From an uncultured Bermanella sp. (GTDB lineage: Bacteria; Pseudomonadota; Gammaproteobacteria; Pseudomonadales; Oceanobacteraceae): a DNA stretch of 64,000 nucleotides. The translations under genes and the position numbers were made by a program. The stretch's first letter is position 1; the number at the start of each line of letters is the position of its first letter. Where the stretch lies: contig CAJXRF010000001.1 of NCBI GenBank assembly GCA_913058575.1, forward strand, positions 39,056-103,055, read 5' to 3'. Below are positions 4,088 through 38,976 of this stretch, piece by piece. The notes beneath the pieces were generated by a model. It saw only the letters and a list, made by a program, of their open reading frames with translations, searched no databases and had not been told where the DNA came from.

Positions 4088-4139
4088 AAAGATGGTCTCC
4101 CCACCAGGACTCGAACCTGGAGCAGCCGCTTAGGAGGCG
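4088..4139. repeat. Left att core: 52-bp direct repeat, 3' part of tRNA-Arg(CCT)
   Basis: aaagatggtctccccaccaggactcgaacctggagcagccgcttaggaggcg is identical at 4088-4139 and 38896-38947. Confidence 0.97.
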
Positions 4140-4185
4140 TCTTGTAAAGTGGCTGAATAGCCCGTAAATACAGGGCTATTGTGTT

Positions 4186-4887
4186 TTAAGGTTCAAATGT
4201 GACACTATTTGTGACACTTTTGGGGTCTTTCGCCTCTTTTGGGTCTGCACTGTGCTTTGTTGCTTCATTTTTCTTGATAGCCATGGCTTGCGCACTTCTT
4301 TCTAAGTTACTGGGCACAATTGATATTAATCCCCTAGGCATTACCAGATCTTTTTCGCCTATCAACTTAACGGCCAAGTTGACTGAAAAGTAAGTGACAA
4401 AAATGAAAATAGGGATTTGAAAAGCTCTAACCAATGTTAAATTTATCTTATGCTTAATATCAGTATTTTTTTTGTAGGCATCCATCTCCATATCTTTTCT
4501 TATTTCATTATTACTTTCTAGTACAGATTTTTTAAATACATCCACACTGCCAATTGTAGTTTTATGCGATATGTAAACTTTAGATAATGATTGTAGACCA
4601 TCACTTACAATGTTTAGTTTTTTAGAAATTTTTTCGCAATCTTTTATAAATACACCAGGGTCGTGATTTACTTCTTGCTGTAGATTCAATATAAAAGTTT
4701 TTGTTTGATTGCATGTTTGTATTGATTCATGAATTAGTTTTAAATTATCTAAAATTTCATTATGTATTCTTACAGTGTCATCCTGATATTTAAGCTTGTC
4801 ATAAAGATTAACAAAACCCAGTTGTACTCTTCTAGTTAGTTGTACAAAGGGTGATGCGTTATAGTTATCCATTTTTATTTCCCTCAA
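4186..4887 (-). CDS. Hypothetical accessory protein (coiled coil plus C-terminal TM segment); likely start at MDNYN
   Basis: 233-aa AT-rich ORF; hydrophobic stretch QIPIFIFVTYFSVNLAVKLI; its 3' end runs through the arm repeats. Confidence 0.6.
   Translation of the reverse strand: MREIKMDNYNASPFVQLTRRVQLGFVNLYDKLKYQDDTVRIHNEILDNLKLIHESIQTCNQTKTFILNLQQEVNHDPGVFIKDCEKISKKLNIVSDGLQSLSKVYISHKTTIGSVDVFKKSVLESNNEIRKDMEMDAYKKNTDIKHKINLTLVRAFQIPIFIFVTYFSVNLAVKLIGEKDLVMPRGLISIVPSNLERSAQAMAIKKNEATKHSADPKEAKDPKSVTNSVTFEP
4198..4218 (+). promoter_or_regulatory. Two TGTGACACT direct repeats; candidate integrase arm-binding sites
   Basis: Copies at 4198 and 4210, about 60 bp inside the left att core; the same 9-mer occurs four times inside the right att. 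Confidence 0.75.
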
Positions 4888-4943
4888 TAAATAAACAGCA
4901 TTTTTTGGCTGGATTGTTTTGTATCAAAATATTTCTTAGTAGT
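4888..4943 (-). repeat. Degenerate copy of the integrase 3' end
   Basis: 49/57 aligned positions identical to 6158-6214, including an identical 19-mer tggctggattgttttgtat (4906-4924 = 6177-6195). Reads TTKKYFDTKQSSQK versus int TTMKYFNTKQSSQK. Confidence 0.9.
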
Positions 4944-4969
4944 TTTACATTTGACTAATTACTATAGAT

Positions 4970-6097
4970 TTAAACGTCAGTAGGCTCTAAAGATTTAGTT
5001 TCGGCTGAGTAAGATTTTTTATTTGCGTAAATACCACCGACTATTCTAGGCTCTATAAATATAACTTTTCTTTTTTCAGCCCCTGGTCCATAAGGCTGCA
5101 TTCTGAAATGACCTTTTCTCCAGTGAGCTTTTTTTGGGCTACTTTTATGGCTATGCGCAATTTCATTGACTGAAGAGTACACGACGTTATCTTCAGGTTT
5201 GATTATTACTCTGTTATAAGTTCTTCGAAGTTTCTTTTCATATTTTTTTAACTTACCTGGGCTTTTCAAGGATTTGATCTTTTTCTCAATTTCACTTCTT
5301 TCATTGAATGCTGTATCTCTATATTGCTTACTATTAATAAAAAGTAGAACTTTAGCCATGTGGTTGAGAGCTTTTGATAAGTATGGTAGATCATTTGCGA
5401 AATCAGAGTCTGAGCCGTATTGTTCCTCAATAAATTTTAGTTGACTATTTATGGTGGTGTTATCTTGATGAATCATAAGGCTTTGTACCCTAAGAGAGTC
5501 ATCACTGTTGGAACTTTTTCCCAAAGGTGAGCCGGTAAACATGAGGTCTAGGACACGGAGTTCTTTAGATTGGTCAACAATTGGGTGTAGACTGTAAGCA
5601 TTCATCTCTTCTGTATCTGGATGTATTACAGTTTCAGAAATATAAACACCTTCTAATATATGATCACCACTTTCTTCGTTATACATATGTAAAGAAGAAC
5701 ATCTTTCTTCTGTAAACTCTATGTAACAACTTTTAAATGGGGGCCTGAGATAGGATAGTGGTATATCGTCACCAATGTCGGTGGCTTCCAATAGTTTATC
5801 AATCTCGTTTGAGGTGGTAAGAATATTACCCTTCATAGACCTGTATTTATATGGGTGTAATAGTGATGATATTAATGTTCCTGCTTCATGGCGAGTCATT
5901 TCACTACTGGTATAGGTTTTTACAAAATCTTCATTATTTTCTTCTATCAGAGCGTACAAATAGTCAATCGTACACTTGGTTATATCAATATCTTCAAAAA
6001 TTGAATCAAAAAATTTATATAGATTCATTAAATATTTTTCTTTAACCTCTTCACATATGGATCTAATTGGGTGAGGTAATTTATATGTAATATCCAT
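4970..6097 (-). CDS. Hypothetical accessory protein with C-terminal HWRKGHFRxQxYGPG motif
   Basis: 375-aa ORF; the basic C-terminal motif is one I recognise from uncharacterised mobile-element proteins; no function assignable. Confidence 0.75.
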   Translation of the reverse strand: MDITYKLPHPIRSICEEVKEKYLMNLYKFFDSIFEDIDITKCTIDYLYALIEENNEDFVKTYTSSEMTRHEAGTLISSLLHPYKYRSMKGNILTTSNEIDKLLEATDIGDDIPLSYLRPPFKSCYIEFTEERCSSLHMYNEESGDHILEGVYISETVIHPDTEEMNAYSLHPIVDQSKELRVLDLMFTGSPLGKSSNSDDSLRVQSLMIHQDNTTINSQLKFIEEQYGSDSDFANDLPYLSKALNHMAKVLLFINSKQYRDTAFNERSEIEKKIKSLKSPGKLKKYEKKLRRTYNRVIIKPEDNVVYSSVNEIAHSHKSSPKKAHWRKGHFRMQPYGPGAEKRKVIFIEPRIVGGIYANKKSYSAETKSLEPTDV

Positions 6098-6148
6098 TAT
6101 TAATGTAATCCTTTTAATGTTAGCTAAAGTATTTGTTAGGAATGCAAG

Positions 6149-7333
6149 TCACCCTAGTAAATCCACAGCGCTTTTCTGGCTGGATTGTTTTGTATTAAAA
6201 TATTTCATTGTAGTGGCTAGGTCCGAGTGGTCGGCTAGGTGTTGAACTTGTACTGGTGGCACGCCTTCATTTAAAAGCCAGGTAATATAAGTGGCTCTAA
6301 TTCCCCAGTGAAAAGGCTTCACGCTTTTTGATAGTCCTAGTTCATTACAGGCTGCGCGCATGGGTTTTGATAAGTTTGCGCTGGTAGAATGCCAAGGTTT
6401 GCCGTTTCCCTTGTCTAAAAAATAACGTTCGCTTGCATCTCTGTTGGCCAAGTCTTCTTTTAGGAAATTCATTAGGGTTTTATTAATGGGTTTATTTGGC
6501 CACTTCATCCCCTTGGGCTTCCAGCCTAATTCTTCGTTCTCTTTTATGTGAACAAAGCCTTTCTCTAAATCTATGTTTTCAAGCTTTAATGCCCAAATGT
6601 GCCCAACGCGTACCAATGTATGACGGGCCAGCATGAATGCTCTGAATAAGTTTTTATTCTGGCGTGTAATGCGAGGGTCATTTTTTTCGTTGAATTTTTC
6701 TTCAAGGTACTTGGCCAAAGAATCCACTTCATCCTGGGTGAATGTTTCCATTTCCTTTTGCGGTACTTTAGACTTTTTAAGATGAAAGCGTTTTTCTAGA
6801 TATTCATTGTCATACGCCCAGTTTAAAAAGTTCTGCAATTGGCGCATGTGTTGGTTTTGTGTGGCTGGCCCAATGACTTCTTTGGTGCGCTTGTTTTTGT
6901 GTTTGGTTAGCGCGGTAAAAAAAGAAATGTTTTTGTCTCGGTCAAAGTCACTTAGGCGGTGATTTTTAACGGTGTCTAAATATAAATCAATGGTGAATTT
7001 ATAAGTTTTGTGAGTCTTGGGGCTTTGGGTTGATTTAATTTCTTCTAACCAAATATTAGAGGCTTCATTAAAGGTGGCGGTGCGGCGTTTACGTTTTACG
7101 CCATCCACGGTTTGGCGTGTTTTTAAAAGCCCTTGTCTTAGTTCTAGTTCCTTATCTGTATAGAGCTTATTTAGGTGTCTTAGCCTTTCATCTTCAGGGA
7201 TTAATTGTAAATCAGATTTTTTACACAGTACGCGACGAATACCACGGCGACCAGGTACATGCCCACGCTCGAAGTCATCAGGATAGACCCCCAATATAGA
7301 ATCACCACGATAAATATAATTTTTACGGGACAT
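6149..7333 (-). CDS. int: Tyrosine recombinase (phage integrase)
   Basis: Catalytic residues in order: R (LVRVGHI), H-x-x-x-R variant (HWGIRAT), H (LADHS), Y (TMKYF); N-terminal SAM-like core-binding region. Confidence 0.95.
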   Translation of the reverse strand: MSRKNYIYRGDSILGVYPDDFERGHVPGRRGIRRVLCKKSDLQLIPEDERLRHLNKLYTDKELELRQGLLKTRQTVDGVKRKRRTATFNEASNIWLEEIKSTQSPKTHKTYKFTIDLYLDTVKNHRLSDFDRDKNISFFTALTKHKNKRTKEVIGPATQNQHMRQLQNFLNWAYDNEYLEKRFHLKKSKVPQKEMETFTQDEVDSLAKYLEEKFNEKNDPRITRQNKNLFRAFMLARHTLVRVGHIWALKLENIDLEKGFVHIKENEELGWKPKGMKWPNKPINKTLMNFLKEDLANRDASERYFLDKGNGKPWHSTSANLSKPMRAACNELGLSKSVKPFHWGIRATYITWLLNEGVPPVQVQHLADHSDLATTMKYFNTKQSSQKSAVDLLG

Positions 7334-7364
7334 TTATAAGCTCCTGGTAGGACTTAGATTGATC

Positions 7365-8492
7365 TCATTCATCTGGTGATCCTTCTTCCCTATACAATTT
7401 TTGTAGGTGCTTTAGCATCATTCTTTCTTTATTAGATAGAGATTTTTCTTCTTTATCCTCCAGTTCTTTCATATAAACAGTAATTACTGTTTCCTCATTC
7501 CCATTTGAAATATTTTTCCGTCTTTCTTGTTCTTTTACTGATTCCCAAATCAATGTTTTGAAATCTGTTGTTGATGTCAAATAAATGAGATTATTTGGAA
7601 TTGTGATTCTTATATGGCCTCTTTCACCAATTAATTTTATTCTGGTTGAGGTTCCAACACCCGTAAATAAAATAGTGGCATTTTTAATTAGGCATGTATT
7701 GGCGTTGCATATAGATTCGCTTGATAGTTTTTGTTCATAGTGGAAGTCTAATTCAGTCTTTAAGTGTTTTTTAGAGACAGTGATGTCTGAGTTTAACTGG
7801 CGAATACTCATAATCTCAAATGTTTTCTCTGTAATTCCAGAGCTTAACTGTCCCAATAAAAGAGGTATGAGGTAGATTAATATGAAAAAAAGTAATTTTA
7901 TAAAGTTCACATTTTTAGAATTTGAGTGACTGCCTTTCAAGTGGTTTAGCCATTTATCATTTACGAATGTAGCTGAGAATATATTTGTTAGTAGTAGTAG
8001 AGATGCAATAGCGGAGAAGTTTATAAGTATAGTAACTGGTGAATAGTCTTCTATTGCTATAAAAAGAAGAAATACGATATTGGATAGGATGCCAGTCTGG
8101 ATTATGTAGTGCTGAATTTTCAGTTTTGGAACGTGGTAACCATTACTTCCTGATGTAGTTATTTTGTTAGTGACCCAGTGAATCAACCAGTTAAAAAAGG
8201 CTAACCAAGTAATCGCTGCTGTGAAGAAACCAAATGAAACAAAACTATAAAATAATGTAAATATAATACAGACGGAAATAAAAAATAGTGTATCTGATAG
8301 TGTTAATCCTGAAGGGTAGAAGCCTATGGATATACAGTAAATCATAACCAAAAGTATCCCTACACTAGCAAATACGAGGTAAGGCAATTTGGGGTGTCTT
8401 TTAATAATTGAGCCGAGATACTGCTCAAAACTCTCTTCTGGCTGAGCGTTTGACGCCGCACCACCGTTTAGAATAATATTTTTGGGTTCCAT
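7365..8492 (-). CDS. Multi-pass membrane protein, unknown function (lysogenic-transcript accessory gene)
   Basis: About 6-7 hydrophobic segments in the first 220 aa, then a soluble C-terminal region; AT-rich; lies between cI and int. Confidence 0.75.
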   Translation of the reverse strand: MEPKNIILNGGAASNAQPEESFEQYLGSIIKRHPKLPYLVFASVGILLVMIYCISIGFYPSGLTLSDTLFFISVCIIFTLFYSFVSFGFFTAAITWLAFFNWLIHWVTNKITTSGSNGYHVPKLKIQHYIIQTGILSNIVFLLFIAIEDYSPVTILINFSAIASLLLLTNIFSATFVNDKWLNHLKGSHSNSKNVNFIKLLFFILIYLIPLLLGQLSSGITEKTFEIMSIRQLNSDITVSKKHLKTELDFHYEQKLSSESICNANTCLIKNATILFTGVGTSTRIKLIGERGHIRITIPNNLIYLTSTTDFKTLIWESVKEQERRKNISNGNEETVITVYMKELEDKEEKSLSNKERMMLKHLQKLYREEGSPDE

Positions 8493-8504
8493 GATTGTAA
8501 TCCC

Positions 8505-9023
8505 TTAACTAGCTTTAGCTTTATTTCTTGCGTTATTCTCACGCATTAACTTACGCCATTCCTTGACGGTCATTACCTCGCCTGTTTCAGTTCTGGTTAT
8601 AGAGTCGTTAATAATTCTGTCTATTCTAAATTCACGTGAGTCTTCGCGTTCTTCACACCAGCCTTTGATATTTCCAGTAATGCCTGTTGAAACTTGAACT
8701 GTGTAGAAACCTTGAATTCCTTCACCAGTTCGGTATTCAAAATTAATGGTGTCCATAGATTGACGTGAGTGGGCAGGGCGTTTTGGCTTATAAGTGCTGG
8801 TGCTGGTGCTGGTGCTGGTGCTGGTGCTGGTGCTGGTGCTGGTGCTGGTGCTAGGTGTGTTTTTATTTTTTTCTTTGTGTTGATCCCATAGCATTTGAAG
8901 GCCAACTAAAAAGAATGCTATTCCAATGCCTATAGCCCATCCAGTGCCGCCAAATATTCCAGCTATGAGAGCAAAGAAAAGTGATCCACCTAGTATAAAT
9001 TTGAATGTAAATTCATTATTCAT
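8505..9023 (-). CDS. Membrane-anchored protein with Ser-Thr linker and WYL-like C-terminal domain
   Basis: Two N-terminal TM helices, (ST)10 linker, then INFEY...IKGWCEEREDSREFRIDRI matching the WYL pattern (xYCxxRxxxRxFRxDRI). Confidence 0.7.
   Translation of the reverse strand: MNNEFTFKFILGGSLFFALIAGIFGGTGWAIGIGIAFFLVGLQMLWDQHKEKNKNTPSTSTSTSTSTSTSTSTSTSTYKPKRPAHSRQSMDTINFEYRTGEGIQGFYTVQVSTGITGNIKGWCEEREDSREFRIDRIINDSITRTETGEVMTVKEWRKLMRENNARNKAKAS
8794..8852. repeat. Hexamer tandem repeat (GTGCTG)x9.8, in frame, encoding Ser-Thr
   Basis: Nine perfect copies plus GTGCT, counted directly. Confidence 0.97.
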
Positions 9024-9080
9024 GATAAAAGTCCTTTTTTATTTAAATGTTTAACAGTTAAAGCTGATTGTTAGTCGAAG

Positions 9081-9713
9081 TTATGATTGGCCACCTTGCC
9101 AAACAACCTCACCAATAATTTTAAGCTCACTAAATTGTTCAGCTGTAAGGTTTTGAGTAACTTCATTATCCATAGTGATGGATACGGTGTTATCCATGTT
9201 TACTAAGGCATCAATGATTCTTTTTGTGCCATTGGTTTCTACTAAAATCAGTCCGCCACCTGATAAATTGCGTGTATCCAGTAAAACTGTATAGCCGCGC
9301 TCAAGTCCTTTTAAGTTGGCTTTGTAATCAATTTTCCAGATTCGGCATTCTTCAACTTTTACATCTAGTTCCTTCTCTAGAAAGTCAGGTTCAAACGACA
9401 TGTTGATCTTTTGGGATTCATCAAGTGGGGTAATTTCTTTAAAGGTGTTGGTGTATTCCCATAGCTCGTCATTAACCATCATTGGGCCCTGCCCTAGAGC
9501 TATCCACTTCAATTCAAACCCTGTAGCAATGGCAATTTCCGCTGCATTTTCCAGAGTCGTAGAGGCCATCTGTCTTGATAGTCTGCTTACTTGGGCGGGG
9601 CCAATGCTAGTGTGTTTTGCCACATATGAAGGGCCTTTGGTCTTTATTGCATAGGCTAGGCGGCCCTTCAAAGTTTCTAAATCTAAGCCATCCATGTTGC
9701 TTGATCTTCCCAT
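9081..9713 (-). CDS. cI: CI-like immunity repressor (N-terminal HTH, S24-like C-terminal domain)
   Basis: HTH ending in KWIALGQGPM, C-terminal KIIGEVVW; divergent from the AlpA/Cox-like gene. Confidence 0.85.
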   Translation of the reverse strand: MGRSSNMDGLDLETLKGRLAYAIKTKGPSYVAKHTSIGPAQVSRLSRQMASTTLENAAEIAIATGFELKWIALGQGPMMVNDELWEYTNTFKEITPLDESQKINMSFEPDFLEKELDVKVEECRIWKIDYKANLKGLERGYTVLLDTRNLSGGGLILVETNGTKRIIDALVNMDNTVSITMDNEVTQNLTAEQFSELKIIGEVVWQGGQS

Positions 9714-9736
9714 GTTTTTTTCCTAAACGATGTCTA

Positions 9737-9786
9737 TCCCTGTTGACAGGGACTTATATGATGTATAAATTGCAATCCTATAGGAT
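9737..9786. promoter_or_regulatory. Lysis-lysogeny switch: two palindromes and a TTGACA -35 box
   Basis: TCCCTGT-TG-ACAGGGA (9737-9752) containing TTGACA (9743-9748); ATCCTATAGGAT (9775-9786). Confidence 0.6.
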
Positions 9787-9879
9787 GCTTTAACCAGTCA
9801 TAGAGGGTCACAGACAGGTTTAAGCAAGAGTATGCCGCTCTATACGACGTATAACAACCACTTAAGGGTAGTAAGCAAT

Positions 9880-10197
9880 ATGGAATCAGTAACCTCTCAC
9901 ACAGCCGAATCGATCAATAACGATGTAATGTGCCTCGTAAACGTCGCACTTAAGAGACGTTCTTTGTATCTATCCCTTAAAGGGGTCTGTGAAAAGCTTA
10001 GTTTTTCTGAGTCGGCCATCAAAAAATGGGTGAAAAACAAGACCTTTCCCCAGCCTGTAATTATCTACAAGCATCCACGCTGGGTGGAGTCCGAAGTAGA
10101 TACCTGGATAGAGCAGCAAAATCCAGAGCGATTGGGGGTAAGGCATCAAGCAACCCAGTTAGAAAAAGACGGTGCCGATATTCTGGCCCAGCTTTAA
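9880..10197 (+). CDS. AlpA/Cox/Apl-like DNA-binding protein (excisionase/regulator)
   Basis: LSLKGVCEKLSFSESAIKKWVKNKTFPQPV...RWVESEVDTWI is the AlpA winged-helix pattern; track start is 9832, start uncertain. Confidence 0.85.
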   Translation: MESVTSHTAESINNDVMCLVNVALKRRSLYLSLKGVCEKLSFSESAIKKWVKNKTFPQPVIIYKHPRWVESEVDTWIEQQNPERLGVRHQATQLEKDGADILAQL

Positions 10198-10230
10198 TAC
10201 TTCAAAAAATCTATTAAGGAATGATTAATC

Positions 10231-38481: not shown

Positions 38482-38844
38482 TTAGTGGGCTTTGGTTCTG
38501 GTGCAGATGTATCTTCGATTGAGTCCTCTTTCAAAAAGTCTGGCGTCTCTTTGGCAAAGTTTGAATGGGTGGCTAACGAGTTCGTTTTCTCGGTAGGTGC
38601 CAACTTGATTGCCTTCACTCGGTGGGTATACATATAACCAAGCCTTAACGTTCACCTCGTACTTTGCTTCTATCTTTTTTGGTGGCTGCTCAGTTTTAGG
38701 GTTGACTAGCACGGCAGAAAATATGCCTATTGTGAATGAGATAAGTAAGAGAGTGCTTAGGATGTTGTTCAAAATGATCTCAAAAAGGCTGATCGATGTG
38801 ACACTAAATGTGACACTTTTAGGGTCTGTGACACTGTGTGACAC
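38482..38844 (-). CDS. Hypothetical protein with one TM; start uncertain
   Basis: 120-aa ORF whose annotated start lies inside the arm repeats. Confidence 0.35.
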   Translation of the reverse strand: MSHSVTDPKSVTFSVTSISLFEIILNNILSTLLLISFTIGIFSAVLVNPKTEQPPKKIEAKYEVNVKAWLYVYPPSEGNQVGTYRENELVSHPFKLCQRDARLFERGLNRRYICTRTKAH

Positions 38845-38845
38845 T
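38797..38845 (+). promoter_or_regulatory. Four TGTGACACT direct repeats; candidate integrase arm-binding sites
   Basis: Copies at 38797, 38809, 38827 and 38837; the first pair has the same 12-bp spacing and trailing ttt(a/g)gggtct as the left pair. Confidence 0.78.
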
Positions 38846-38895: not shown

Positions 38896-38947
38896 AAAGA
38901 TGGTCTCCCCACCAGGACTCGAACCTGGAGCAGCCGCTTAGGAGGCG
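38896..38947. repeat. Right att core (52 bp), overlapping the intact tRNA
   Basis: Identical to 4088-4139. Confidence 0.97.
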
Positions 38948-38976
38948 GCAGTTTTATCCGGTTAAACTATGGAGAG
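38901..38976 (-). tRNA. tRNA-Arg, anticodon CCT
   Basis: CTCTCCA TA GTTT AACCGGATA AAAC T GCCGC CTCCTAA GCGGC TGCT CCAGG TTCGAGT CCTGG TGGGGAG A CCA folds as a 76-nt cloverleaf. Confidence 0.97.

Follow-up and report, generated by a model that had tools for sequence, protein, structure and literature searches.

A partial copy of the integrase 3' end beside an AcrVA2-like gene in a marine P2-like prophage, and its probable origin as a recombination scar

How a prophage comes to hold two copies of the 3' end of its own integrase gene, with a single gene enclosed between them, is the question raised by the locus described here. The locus lies in a stretch of 64,000 nucleotides (nt) from an uncultured Bermanella sp. 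(GenBank assembly GCA_913058575.1, contig CAJXRF010000001.1, positions 39,056 to 103,055 of the forward strand), referred to below as the window; coordinates given without a locus number are those of the window. The window contains a ~35-kb P2-like prophage in a tRNA-Arg gene, bounded by two identical 52-nt cores of the attachment (att) site. On the minus strand, reading from the left att core, the order is core, a gene here named Z, a relic of the integrase 3' end, an AcrVA2-like gene of 375 amino acids (aa), the tyrosine integrase gene (int), a 375-aa open reading frame (ORF), a WYL-like gene and cI. The duplicated integrase end probably arose when related phages recombined out of register within the cargo slot that separates int from the phage attachment site (attP), and would be the scar of that event.

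Integrase 3' ends in front of gene Z

A repeat search of the window returned an ungapped 43-nt direct repeat (4901-4943 and 6172-6214, 91% identity, spacing 1271 nt). Gapped alignment of 4888-4943 with 6158-6214 gave 49/57 identical positions, one 1-nt gap and an identical run of 19 nt (TGGCTGGATTGTTTTGTAT), reproducing the coordinates and figures reported by the initial annotation of this DNA, and fainter similarity reached the stop-codon position of int (~4880-4946 versus 6149-6216). The intact copy is formed by the last ~19 codons of int (6158-6214), a minus-strand gene of 394 aa (6149..7333; PF00589, expectation value (E) = 4.9e-20). The other copy is the relic (4880..4946, core 4888-4943, minus strand), which has suffered a 1-nt deletion and lost its stop codon; translated in the int frame it reads TTKKYFDTKQSSQK up to the deletion. 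A lineage-specific stretch, ACAAAACAATCCAGCCA, is common to both copies, and several of the differences between them (8 of 57 positions) are synonymous or conservative. The repeat exceeds chance, since a search of the entire 5.72-Mb assembly with the relic as query had just two hits, the relic and the 3' end of int (E = 1.7e-11).

Exactly one gene stands between the copies, as had been noted before: a single 375-aa ORF (4970-6097, minus strand), which is the AcrVA2-like gene. It is separated from int by a 51-nt spacer (6098..6148, minus strand) in which AAAGGA is the likely ribosome-binding site. On its other side a seam of ~23-26 nt (4947..4969, minus strand; junction 4944-4969) runs from its stop codon to the relic; the illegitimate junction proposed below was assigned to this seam by reading of the sequence, and a motif search found no att or arm motif in 4947-4969. 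The relic in turn abuts the start of the next gene, again as first described. This gene, Z (4186..4872, minus strand), was earlier listed as a 233-aa ORF and has 228 aa when its start is placed by the Shine-Dalgarno sequence: the likely start is ATG 4872-4870, and the Shine-Dalgarno sequence, GAGGGA, lies inside the relic. The filled arrangement (int, AcrVA2-like gene, relic, Z) was present at 99.9-100% identity in contigs from several other samples, and all contigs from other samples were in the filled state. Apparent variant junctions at the ends of short contigs from these samples were examined and rejected, the ends being Illumina and Nextera adapters.

Two consequences of the 1-nt deletion in the relic were noted. 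It creates a five-codon mini-ORF (MLFIY and stop, 4882-4899, minus strand) whose stop overlaps the Z Shine-Dalgarno sequence, 10 nt before the Z ATG, and which may be fortuitous or may serve for coupling. The deletion also qualifies the earlier proposal that recombination between the copies would remove the enclosed gene and leave int nearly intact: because of it, the predicted product of recombination in the 19-nt block is an integrase with an altered C-terminus, ending ...SSQKMLFIY and stop and lacking the family-invariant residues A389 and L393, and this integrase might not be fully functional.

Relatives for comparison were drawn from metagenome and viral contigs and from one Bermanella metagenome-assembled genome (MAG). 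The family sample comprised 10 related prophages, with six informative loci for Z; individual loci are denoted by L numbers. Among GTDB representative genomes the only relative was the Bermanella sp. MAG (int 59% identity), and the nearer relatives came from metagenome protein and contig searches. A distant blastn search of GenBank phages with 4090-10200 and an exact search of viral contigs for the shared 18-mer gave no match, and a pattern search of viral contigs for the arm repeats described below returned mostly unrelated phages.

In every locus where the sequence upstream of Z was visible (6/6), an int 3' end directly precedes Z. Two of these loci are empty slots, in which an open int frame is followed at once by the Z homologue: in L023 the Z ATG stands 7 nt past the int stop, and in L065, a short contig on which just 71 int codons are visible, it stands 10 nt past. 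The other four carry a relic, of ~60 nt in the window (5' end ~64 nt before the int stop), ~92 nt in L026 (10378-10470, 83/90 identical to its own int), ~50 nt in L021 (6890-6945, degenerate) and ~140 nt in L050 (~700-837, frameshifted). The initial annotation had proposed that related prophages be searched for empty sites, for other genes in the same slot and for conserved boundaries. Empty sites were found in L023 and L065, and other cargo stands before relic and Z in L026 (a 327-aa gene), L021 (a 279-aa and a 336-aa gene) and L050 (other sequence). The boundaries are not conserved: the cargo ahead of the relic and the relic 5' end differ in all four relic loci.

The relics resemble the int genes of their own sub-lineages and not one another, those of the window and L026 being identical at 41/67 positions. 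The L026 relic is 92% identical to its own int and 82-84% identical to other ints. The window relic matches its own int at 52/67 and the int of L030 at 53/67 positions, and near the stop L030 is the nearer (90% over 52 nt); being equally near to both, it would agree with derivation from another int allele. The cargo of L021 and that of L026 are distantly homologous (30% identity). Altogether there are at least three, and probably four, independent junctions.

One junction can be placed exactly, by comparison of L026 with L027. The two are collinear and 93% identical from well upstream of int, through int and the 327-aa gene, as far as L026 10377, ~60 nt past the stop of that gene. Beyond this point L026 enters the int relic and Z directly, L027 runs into unrelated DNA, and similarity returns in the arm repeats and the att core. 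The two loci therefore differ by one illegitimate junction, where similarity is limited to a few bases at most, and one homologous junction, and L026 has the appearance of a phage of the L027 type onto which the final 92 nt of int, Z and attP from an int-Z phage have been joined.

The interval in which these junctions fall is hypervariable, holding zero to seven genes across the 10 relatives. Between int and the arm repeats there is nothing in L037 (int stop, ~20 nt, arm repeats, core), Z alone in L023, the 327-aa gene and then Z in L026 and L036, the 279-aa and 336-aa genes and then Z in L021, the 327-aa gene and an opposite-strand gene in L027, and from five to seven other genes, the majority of them on the opposite strand, in L013, L020/L028, L030 and L031. 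Nearly all of this cargo is without annotation. The flanks are constant: int homologues of 52-80% identity adjoin the same tRNA-Arg att, and all relatives that reach the att side have the same tRNA-Arg core with the same arm repeats ~55 nt away. Since content varies fully between conserved flanks, the int-att interval is a cargo hotspot. The int gene is itself a mosaic across the family, that of the window being nearer to the L021/L026/L027 group over its first ~400 nt (64-77% per 100 nt) and nearer to L020/L030 thereafter (79-95%), which indicates recombination inside int among these phages.

Origin of the repeat

The position of Z offers a reason for the form of these scars. In every locus the Shine-Dalgarno sequence of Z is made of the last Gly codon and stop region of int. 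At the other end of the gene, the C-terminal residues KSVTNSVT of Z are encoded by two direct repeats of AGTGTCACA (4198..4218, minus strand), and the same tail is found in Z homologues. Chance would put 0.43 copies of AGTGTCACA in the window, which has 7. Six of them, all oriented alike, lie around the two att cores, with the two within Z on one side and four (38797..38845, minus strand) in the other attP arm, ~50-60 nt from the cores; in all family members this distance is kept at ~55 nt. From this layout we infer that the repeats are putative arm-type integrase-binding sites of attP. The tail of Z is apparently conserved because of these DNA sites, its coding 3' end doubling as putative integrase arm sites. 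Because the Shine-Dalgarno sequence of Z lies in the end of int and its last codons are the arm repeats, Z is packed in without a spare base at either end, and a gene added between int and Z with all parts left working must therefore duplicate the overlapping sequence.

The favoured course of events is as follows. The simplest form in the family is int stop, ~20 nt, arm-type repeats and att core, and in one sub-lineage Z is wedged exactly between the end of int and the arm repeats. Two related phages, or a phage and a resident prophage, would then have met, one with int and the AcrVA2-like gene and the other with int and Z. One crossover, a homologous one, would have fallen within the body of the phage or else in the arm and core of attP, and the other, an illegitimate join, would have run from just past the AcrVA2-like stop to ~64 nt before the int end of the other phage, by unequal crossing-over or homology-facilitated illegitimate recombination. 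The outcome would be int, AcrVA2-like gene, ~60 nt of int relic, Z and attP; afterwards the relic would have decayed (1-nt deletion, stop lost), its end still serving as the translation start region of Z. Long duplications would be unstable and costly in packaging space, and short relics would be those that survive. We infer the order of these steps, and likewise which of the two genes, AcrVA2-like or Z, came second.

This origin is considered probable. It corresponds to one of three options put forward in the initial annotation, namely that a related phage recombined here and left a scar, and fits best with the variable breakpoints, the L026/L027 junction, the mosaic int gene and the similarity of the window relic to the L030 int. 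Another of the three, an expandable array in which genes are collected, describes part of what was found, in that the slot does collect same-strand genes right after int; no sign of a dedicated mechanism was seen.

Several observations weigh against a recombination scar. No family phage was found with int directly before an AcrVA2-like gene, so that donor and parental-type genome are both missing and the event in the window was reconstructed by analogy with L026/L027. The nearness of the L026 relic to its own int fits in-situ duplication or gene conversion about equally well. The three to four junctions all fall in the last 50-140 nt of int, which is a lot for random illegitimate events; a survivorship argument may account for this clustering, shorter relics losing the start signals of Z and longer ones being unstable. 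Finally, with cargo that is 30% identical, L021 and L026 may both descend from one older event.

Some of these points lend themselves to an in-situ duplicative insertion, in which an int-Z phage would have gained the AcrVA2-like gene from unrelated DNA in a single replication error, the polymerase switching template into foreign DNA (host chromosome, plasmid or other mobile element) and re-entering ~64 nt upstream of its point of exit, which would leave the target duplicated at both ends of the insert. AcrVA2-like genes do occur as single orphans in many unrelated contexts, the L026 relic is nearest to its own int, and the two window copies share ACAAAACAATCCAGCCA. We nevertheless regard this course as unlikely: the window relic is equally near to the L030 int, its 8/57 differences from its own int include several synonymous or conservative ones, as between functional alleles, L027 already carries int with the same cargo as L026, and two non-homologous joins would be needed in one event.

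A functional role of the relic would be compatible with a recombination scar and not an alternative to it. On this reading the last >=50 nt (at least 50 nt) of int are a promoter or control element for Z and are retained as such, the int 3' end and Z forming a self-contained expression module that would travel and persist together. Every Z seen has an int 3' end ahead of it, the shortest relic (~50 nt) is about the size of a promoter plus leader, and two changes in the window relic create a weak sigma-70-like site (TTGATA, 16 nt, AAAAAT, at 4927-4900). That promoter match is 9/12, however, at the background of shuffled sequence (20 found versus 18.9 expected), and the need for a Shine-Dalgarno sequence alone accounts for the keeping of the last ~20 nt; such a role is judged quite unlikely. 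No better a chance is given to the broader view that int 3' relics with Z are a portable module, serving as promoter and leader or as homology arms, by which genes would be stacked and shed reversibly behind int on the lysogenic transcript; if it were true, the slot would be a recombinase-independent cassette array made from a piece of the integrase gene.

A single ancient duplication (int, cargo, relic, Z) whose repeats have since been used as homology arms in the swapping of cargo is very unlikely. It would have gene conversion keep the relics like their own int and would derive the int-Z phages by deletion between repeats, and it amounts to the expandable array or cassette of the initial annotation working through flanking homology. 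Relics are indeed present in 4/6 Z-bearing loci, each like the int of its own lineage, with differing cargo between the repeats and distantly related cargo at the same place in L021 and L026. Yet the relic 5' ends differ (~50, 60, 92 and 140 nt), the relics have no derived changes in common (window versus L026, 41/67), L027 has the cargo of L026 without relic or Z, and the identical run in the window, at just 19 nt, is below the length for efficient RecA recombination, which in Escherichia coli needs roughly 23-27 bp of identity.

The remaining option of the initial annotation, a site-specific, non-autonomous one-gene cassette inserted at the int 3' end by a recombinase acting on the shared core and restoring int, is extremely improbable: a direct repeat does bracket exactly one gene, and empty and differently filled alleles do exist, but the breakpoints are not conserved between occurrences, repeat and motif searches of the unit found no recombinase gene, attC-like inverted repeat, att or arm motif, the window integrase scores 39.5 bits against a 265-bit integron cut-off, the repeats are 86% identical and not near-identical, AcrVA2-like genes elsewhere lack these flanks, and every contig from other samples is in the filled state.

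The prophage and its cargo genes

The left att core (4088..4139, minus strand), which marks one prophage boundary, duplicates the 3' half of the tRNA-Arg gene over 52 nt; the identical 52-mer at 38896-38947 is the right core and lies in the tRNA-Arg(CCT) gene itself (38901-38976), the sole tRNA gene in the window (boundary feature 38896..38976, minus strand). The backbone is P2-like, with portal and large terminase genes divergent from those of scaffold, major capsid and small terminase, and includes tail sheath, tape measure, baseplate, a gpA-type replication nickase and a CI-type repressor; PF05840 is present in relatives. By its scores against the integron-integrase profiles (TIGR02249 integrase_gron, 39.5 bits as above; NF011946, 16 against 435 bits) the window integrase is classed as not integron-type. 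GC content is 0.34 in the AcrVA2-like gene, 0.32 in Z, 0.41 in int and 0.42 in the phage body. Between int and att no minus-strand terminator-like site was found except 4091-4105, inside the att core. Since int, the AcrVA2-like gene and Z are on the same strand with no such site between them, all three probably belong to the cI-int transcript of the lysogen.

The AcrVA2-like gene (4970..6097, minus strand) was recognised by a precomputed match to PF26125 (AcrVA2-like, E <= 1e-5), which is shared by the window's 375-aa protein and 40/40 of its homologues. The local Pfam copy, which may predate the PF26125 model, and NCBIfam gave no match for this protein, and the PDB gave none by sequence, profile or fold (fold E <= 0.001). 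An AlphaFold model of it (predicted local distance difference test (pLDDT) 76, predicted template-modelling score (pTM) 0.76) matched only uncharacterised phage proteins in BFVD, jumbo phages among the sources. AcrVA2 reportedly binds the nascent N-terminus of Cas12a and triggers loss of the Cas12a mRNA, with residues H286, R288 and H291 needed for activity; its homologues, among them FinQ, a fertility inhibitor of plasmids, occur widely on the mobile elements of bacteria that are free of Cas12a (bioRxiv 10.1101/2022.11.29.518452). Residues H325, R327 and H330 of the window protein have the same spacing as these three functional residues, and among 17 homologues R327 and H330 are invariant and H325 is nearly so; the equivalence rests on spacing and conservation and not on an alignment to AcrVA2 itself. 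The likeness to the AcrVA2/FinQ family thus consists of the Pfam match, the C-terminal H-x-R-x-x-H and a location on a mobile element, as in most homologues, and the difference is that the N-terminal, target-recognition part of the window protein has diverged. Its target need not be Cas12a. The Cas12a profile TIGR04330 found no match in the host genome, but was silent in the control genomes too, so that the search had no working positive control.

Homologues of the AcrVA2-like gene were found as lone orphan genes in Shewanella, Pseudomonas and Aeromonas chromosomes, in another phage and beside an unrelated integrase. The Shewanella homologue follows gcvP and the Aeromonas homologue is near uvrD. 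The closest homologue (63% identity; L040, 101-3094) lies 550 nt downstream of an unrelated 438-aa integrase gene, with no repeat. That the AcrVA2-like gene might carry its own duplication mechanism was considered and rejected, five other contexts (L014-L018, L040) being without a bracketing repeat or shared flanks. A further duplicated 3' end at a site of insertion was seen in Aeromonas caviae, where the last ~115 nt of uvrD are duplicated (L017, 9171-9285 versus 9813-9927, 95-98% identity; L018 likewise); the two uvrD copies bracket a 49-nt tandem-repeat array beside the AcrVA2-like gene and not the gene itself.

Gene Z belongs to a tiny family: a search of 1.84 billion representative proteins gave 23 clusters at E <= 1e-10, and within the order it was found in 1/401 genomes searched, that of the window itself. 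Searches of viral contigs and of these 401 genomes yielded no Z loci beyond those already known, and Z had no family match in Pfam, PHROGs, NCBIfam, PADLOC or, by sequence, the PDB. Its homologues are the att-proximal gene in L021, L023, L026, L050 and L065. The N-terminal part is variable and is followed by a conserved C-terminal hydrophobic segment (QIPIFIFVTYFSV...DLVIPRGLISIVPS), which probably spans the membrane and would anchor Z there.

Between the cargo genes of several relatives an imperfect palindrome of ~45 nt is conserved (GGCGCGGGGTC...TTTGTGCGTTTAAGGCAAAAG...GAC), with copies in L020 (9902-9945, 10634-10681, 11740-11778), L030 (4833-4863, 7394-7432), L021 (5766-5806), L026 (10315-10366) and L027 (4396-4447). 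It was tried as an attC-like cassette site and rejected, because host genomes of the genus have it scattered through them (G001 with 9 copies, G013 with 5), which makes it REP-like (resembling repetitive extragenic palindromic elements). The palindrome is absent from the window, and a lone weak match (E = 7e-4) stands elsewhere in the window's genome. In L026 one copy is 11 nt from the illegitimate junction, and the palindrome might favour breakage or a switch of template.

The interval between cI and int (7365-9023 in the window) is a second variable slot. In the window it holds the WYL-like gene (172 aa) and the 375-aa ORF without family match; L023 has a homologue of the WYL-like gene only (6112-6978, 37% identity), L020 has a homologue of the 375-aa ORF only (6020-6997, 33% identity), and in most relatives cI abuts int. 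No relic-type direct repeats were found in this slot. The WYL-like gene contains a perfect hexanucleotide run of GGTGCT (~10 copies, 8782-8870) that encodes (Ser-Thr)n; as the run is in frame, a change in its length would alter a linker and would not switch the gene off.

Relation to known hotspots and to other routes of gene gain

Accessory hotspots with defence and anti-defence genes are known in P2-like prophages, and a minor one of these separates the integrase gene from att (Rousset et al. 2022, PMC9122126; NAR 2026, PMC13586616). In enterobacterial P2 the int-att hotspot holds 3% of P2 defence systems, and small intergenic remnants in P2 hotspots have been ascribed to intense recombination; the same survey of P2 and P4 hotspots considered homologous recombination, transposons and illegitimate recombination all possible and settled on none (NAR 2026, PMC13586616). 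Like these hotspots, the slot described here is framed by conserved sequence, with int at one end and the attP arm and core at the other, and turns over unrelated, low-GC genes quickly. It differs in that its host, in place of an enterobacterium, is a bacterium of the Oceanospirillales type, almost none of the cargo has an annotation, the cI-int interval is variable as well, and the scars show gene addition, and not just swapping, through an out-of-register junction. Unlike in enterobacterial P2, the int-att interval appears to be a main hotspot in this marine family.

The AcrVA2-like gene also resembles a moron in Hendrix's sense, a single gene of deviant composition between genes that are adjacent in relatives (int and Z in L023 and L065), and its expression, as with a moron, is probably from the prophage. 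A classic moron arrives with a promoter and a terminator of its own. In the window neither was detected for this gene (promoter-like matches were at background), and its insertion duplicated ~60 nt of the gene upstream. In homology-facilitated illegitimate recombination, reportedly described by de Vries and Wackernagel for natural transformation, and in unequal crossing-over, the likeness lies in the pairing of one homologous with one nearly homology-free junction, as in L026/L027, and in the outcome, a gain of sequence accompanied by duplication or deletion where the illegitimate join was made. The difference is that such recombination would here have taken place in crosses between phages or between phage and prophage, and not in transformation.

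Two further comparisons show likeness mainly in outline. With integron cassettes the locus shares a one-gene, apparently promoterless, same-strand unit downstream of a tyrosine recombinase gene in a variable slot; it differs in that the window has neither attC nor attI, the integrase is not of the IntI type, the boundaries vary and the repeat is integrase coding sequence. With elements that restore the 3' end of their target gene, such as phages and islands in tRNA or transfer-messenger RNA (tmRNA) genes, it shares an insert bracketed by a direct repeat of a 3' end, the gene being left intact. The window prophage is itself such an element in tRNA-Arg, with a perfect 52-nt repeat, whereas the int relic pair is imperfect (86%), varies in length, brackets no recombinase and has no core or arm sites.

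Hotspots of this kind are already known, and what is modestly new is the recurrence of the scar before one gene family and its explanation by overlapping signals. AcrVA2/FinQ-family cargo is of note for its placement where the prophage would express it, in a host where Cas12a was not detected by a search that had no working control. The locus bears on the ways in which prophage hotspots acquire and exchange defence and anti-defence genes. Scars such as these would be readable footprints of one route, in which a homologous and an illegitimate junction between related phages add a gene and do not replace one, and the overlap of the int stop, the start signals of the next gene and the attP arm sites suggests why a scar is formed, viable additions having to duplicate the shared sequence. 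In such phages the relics could be used as markers for ordering the acquisition of cargo.

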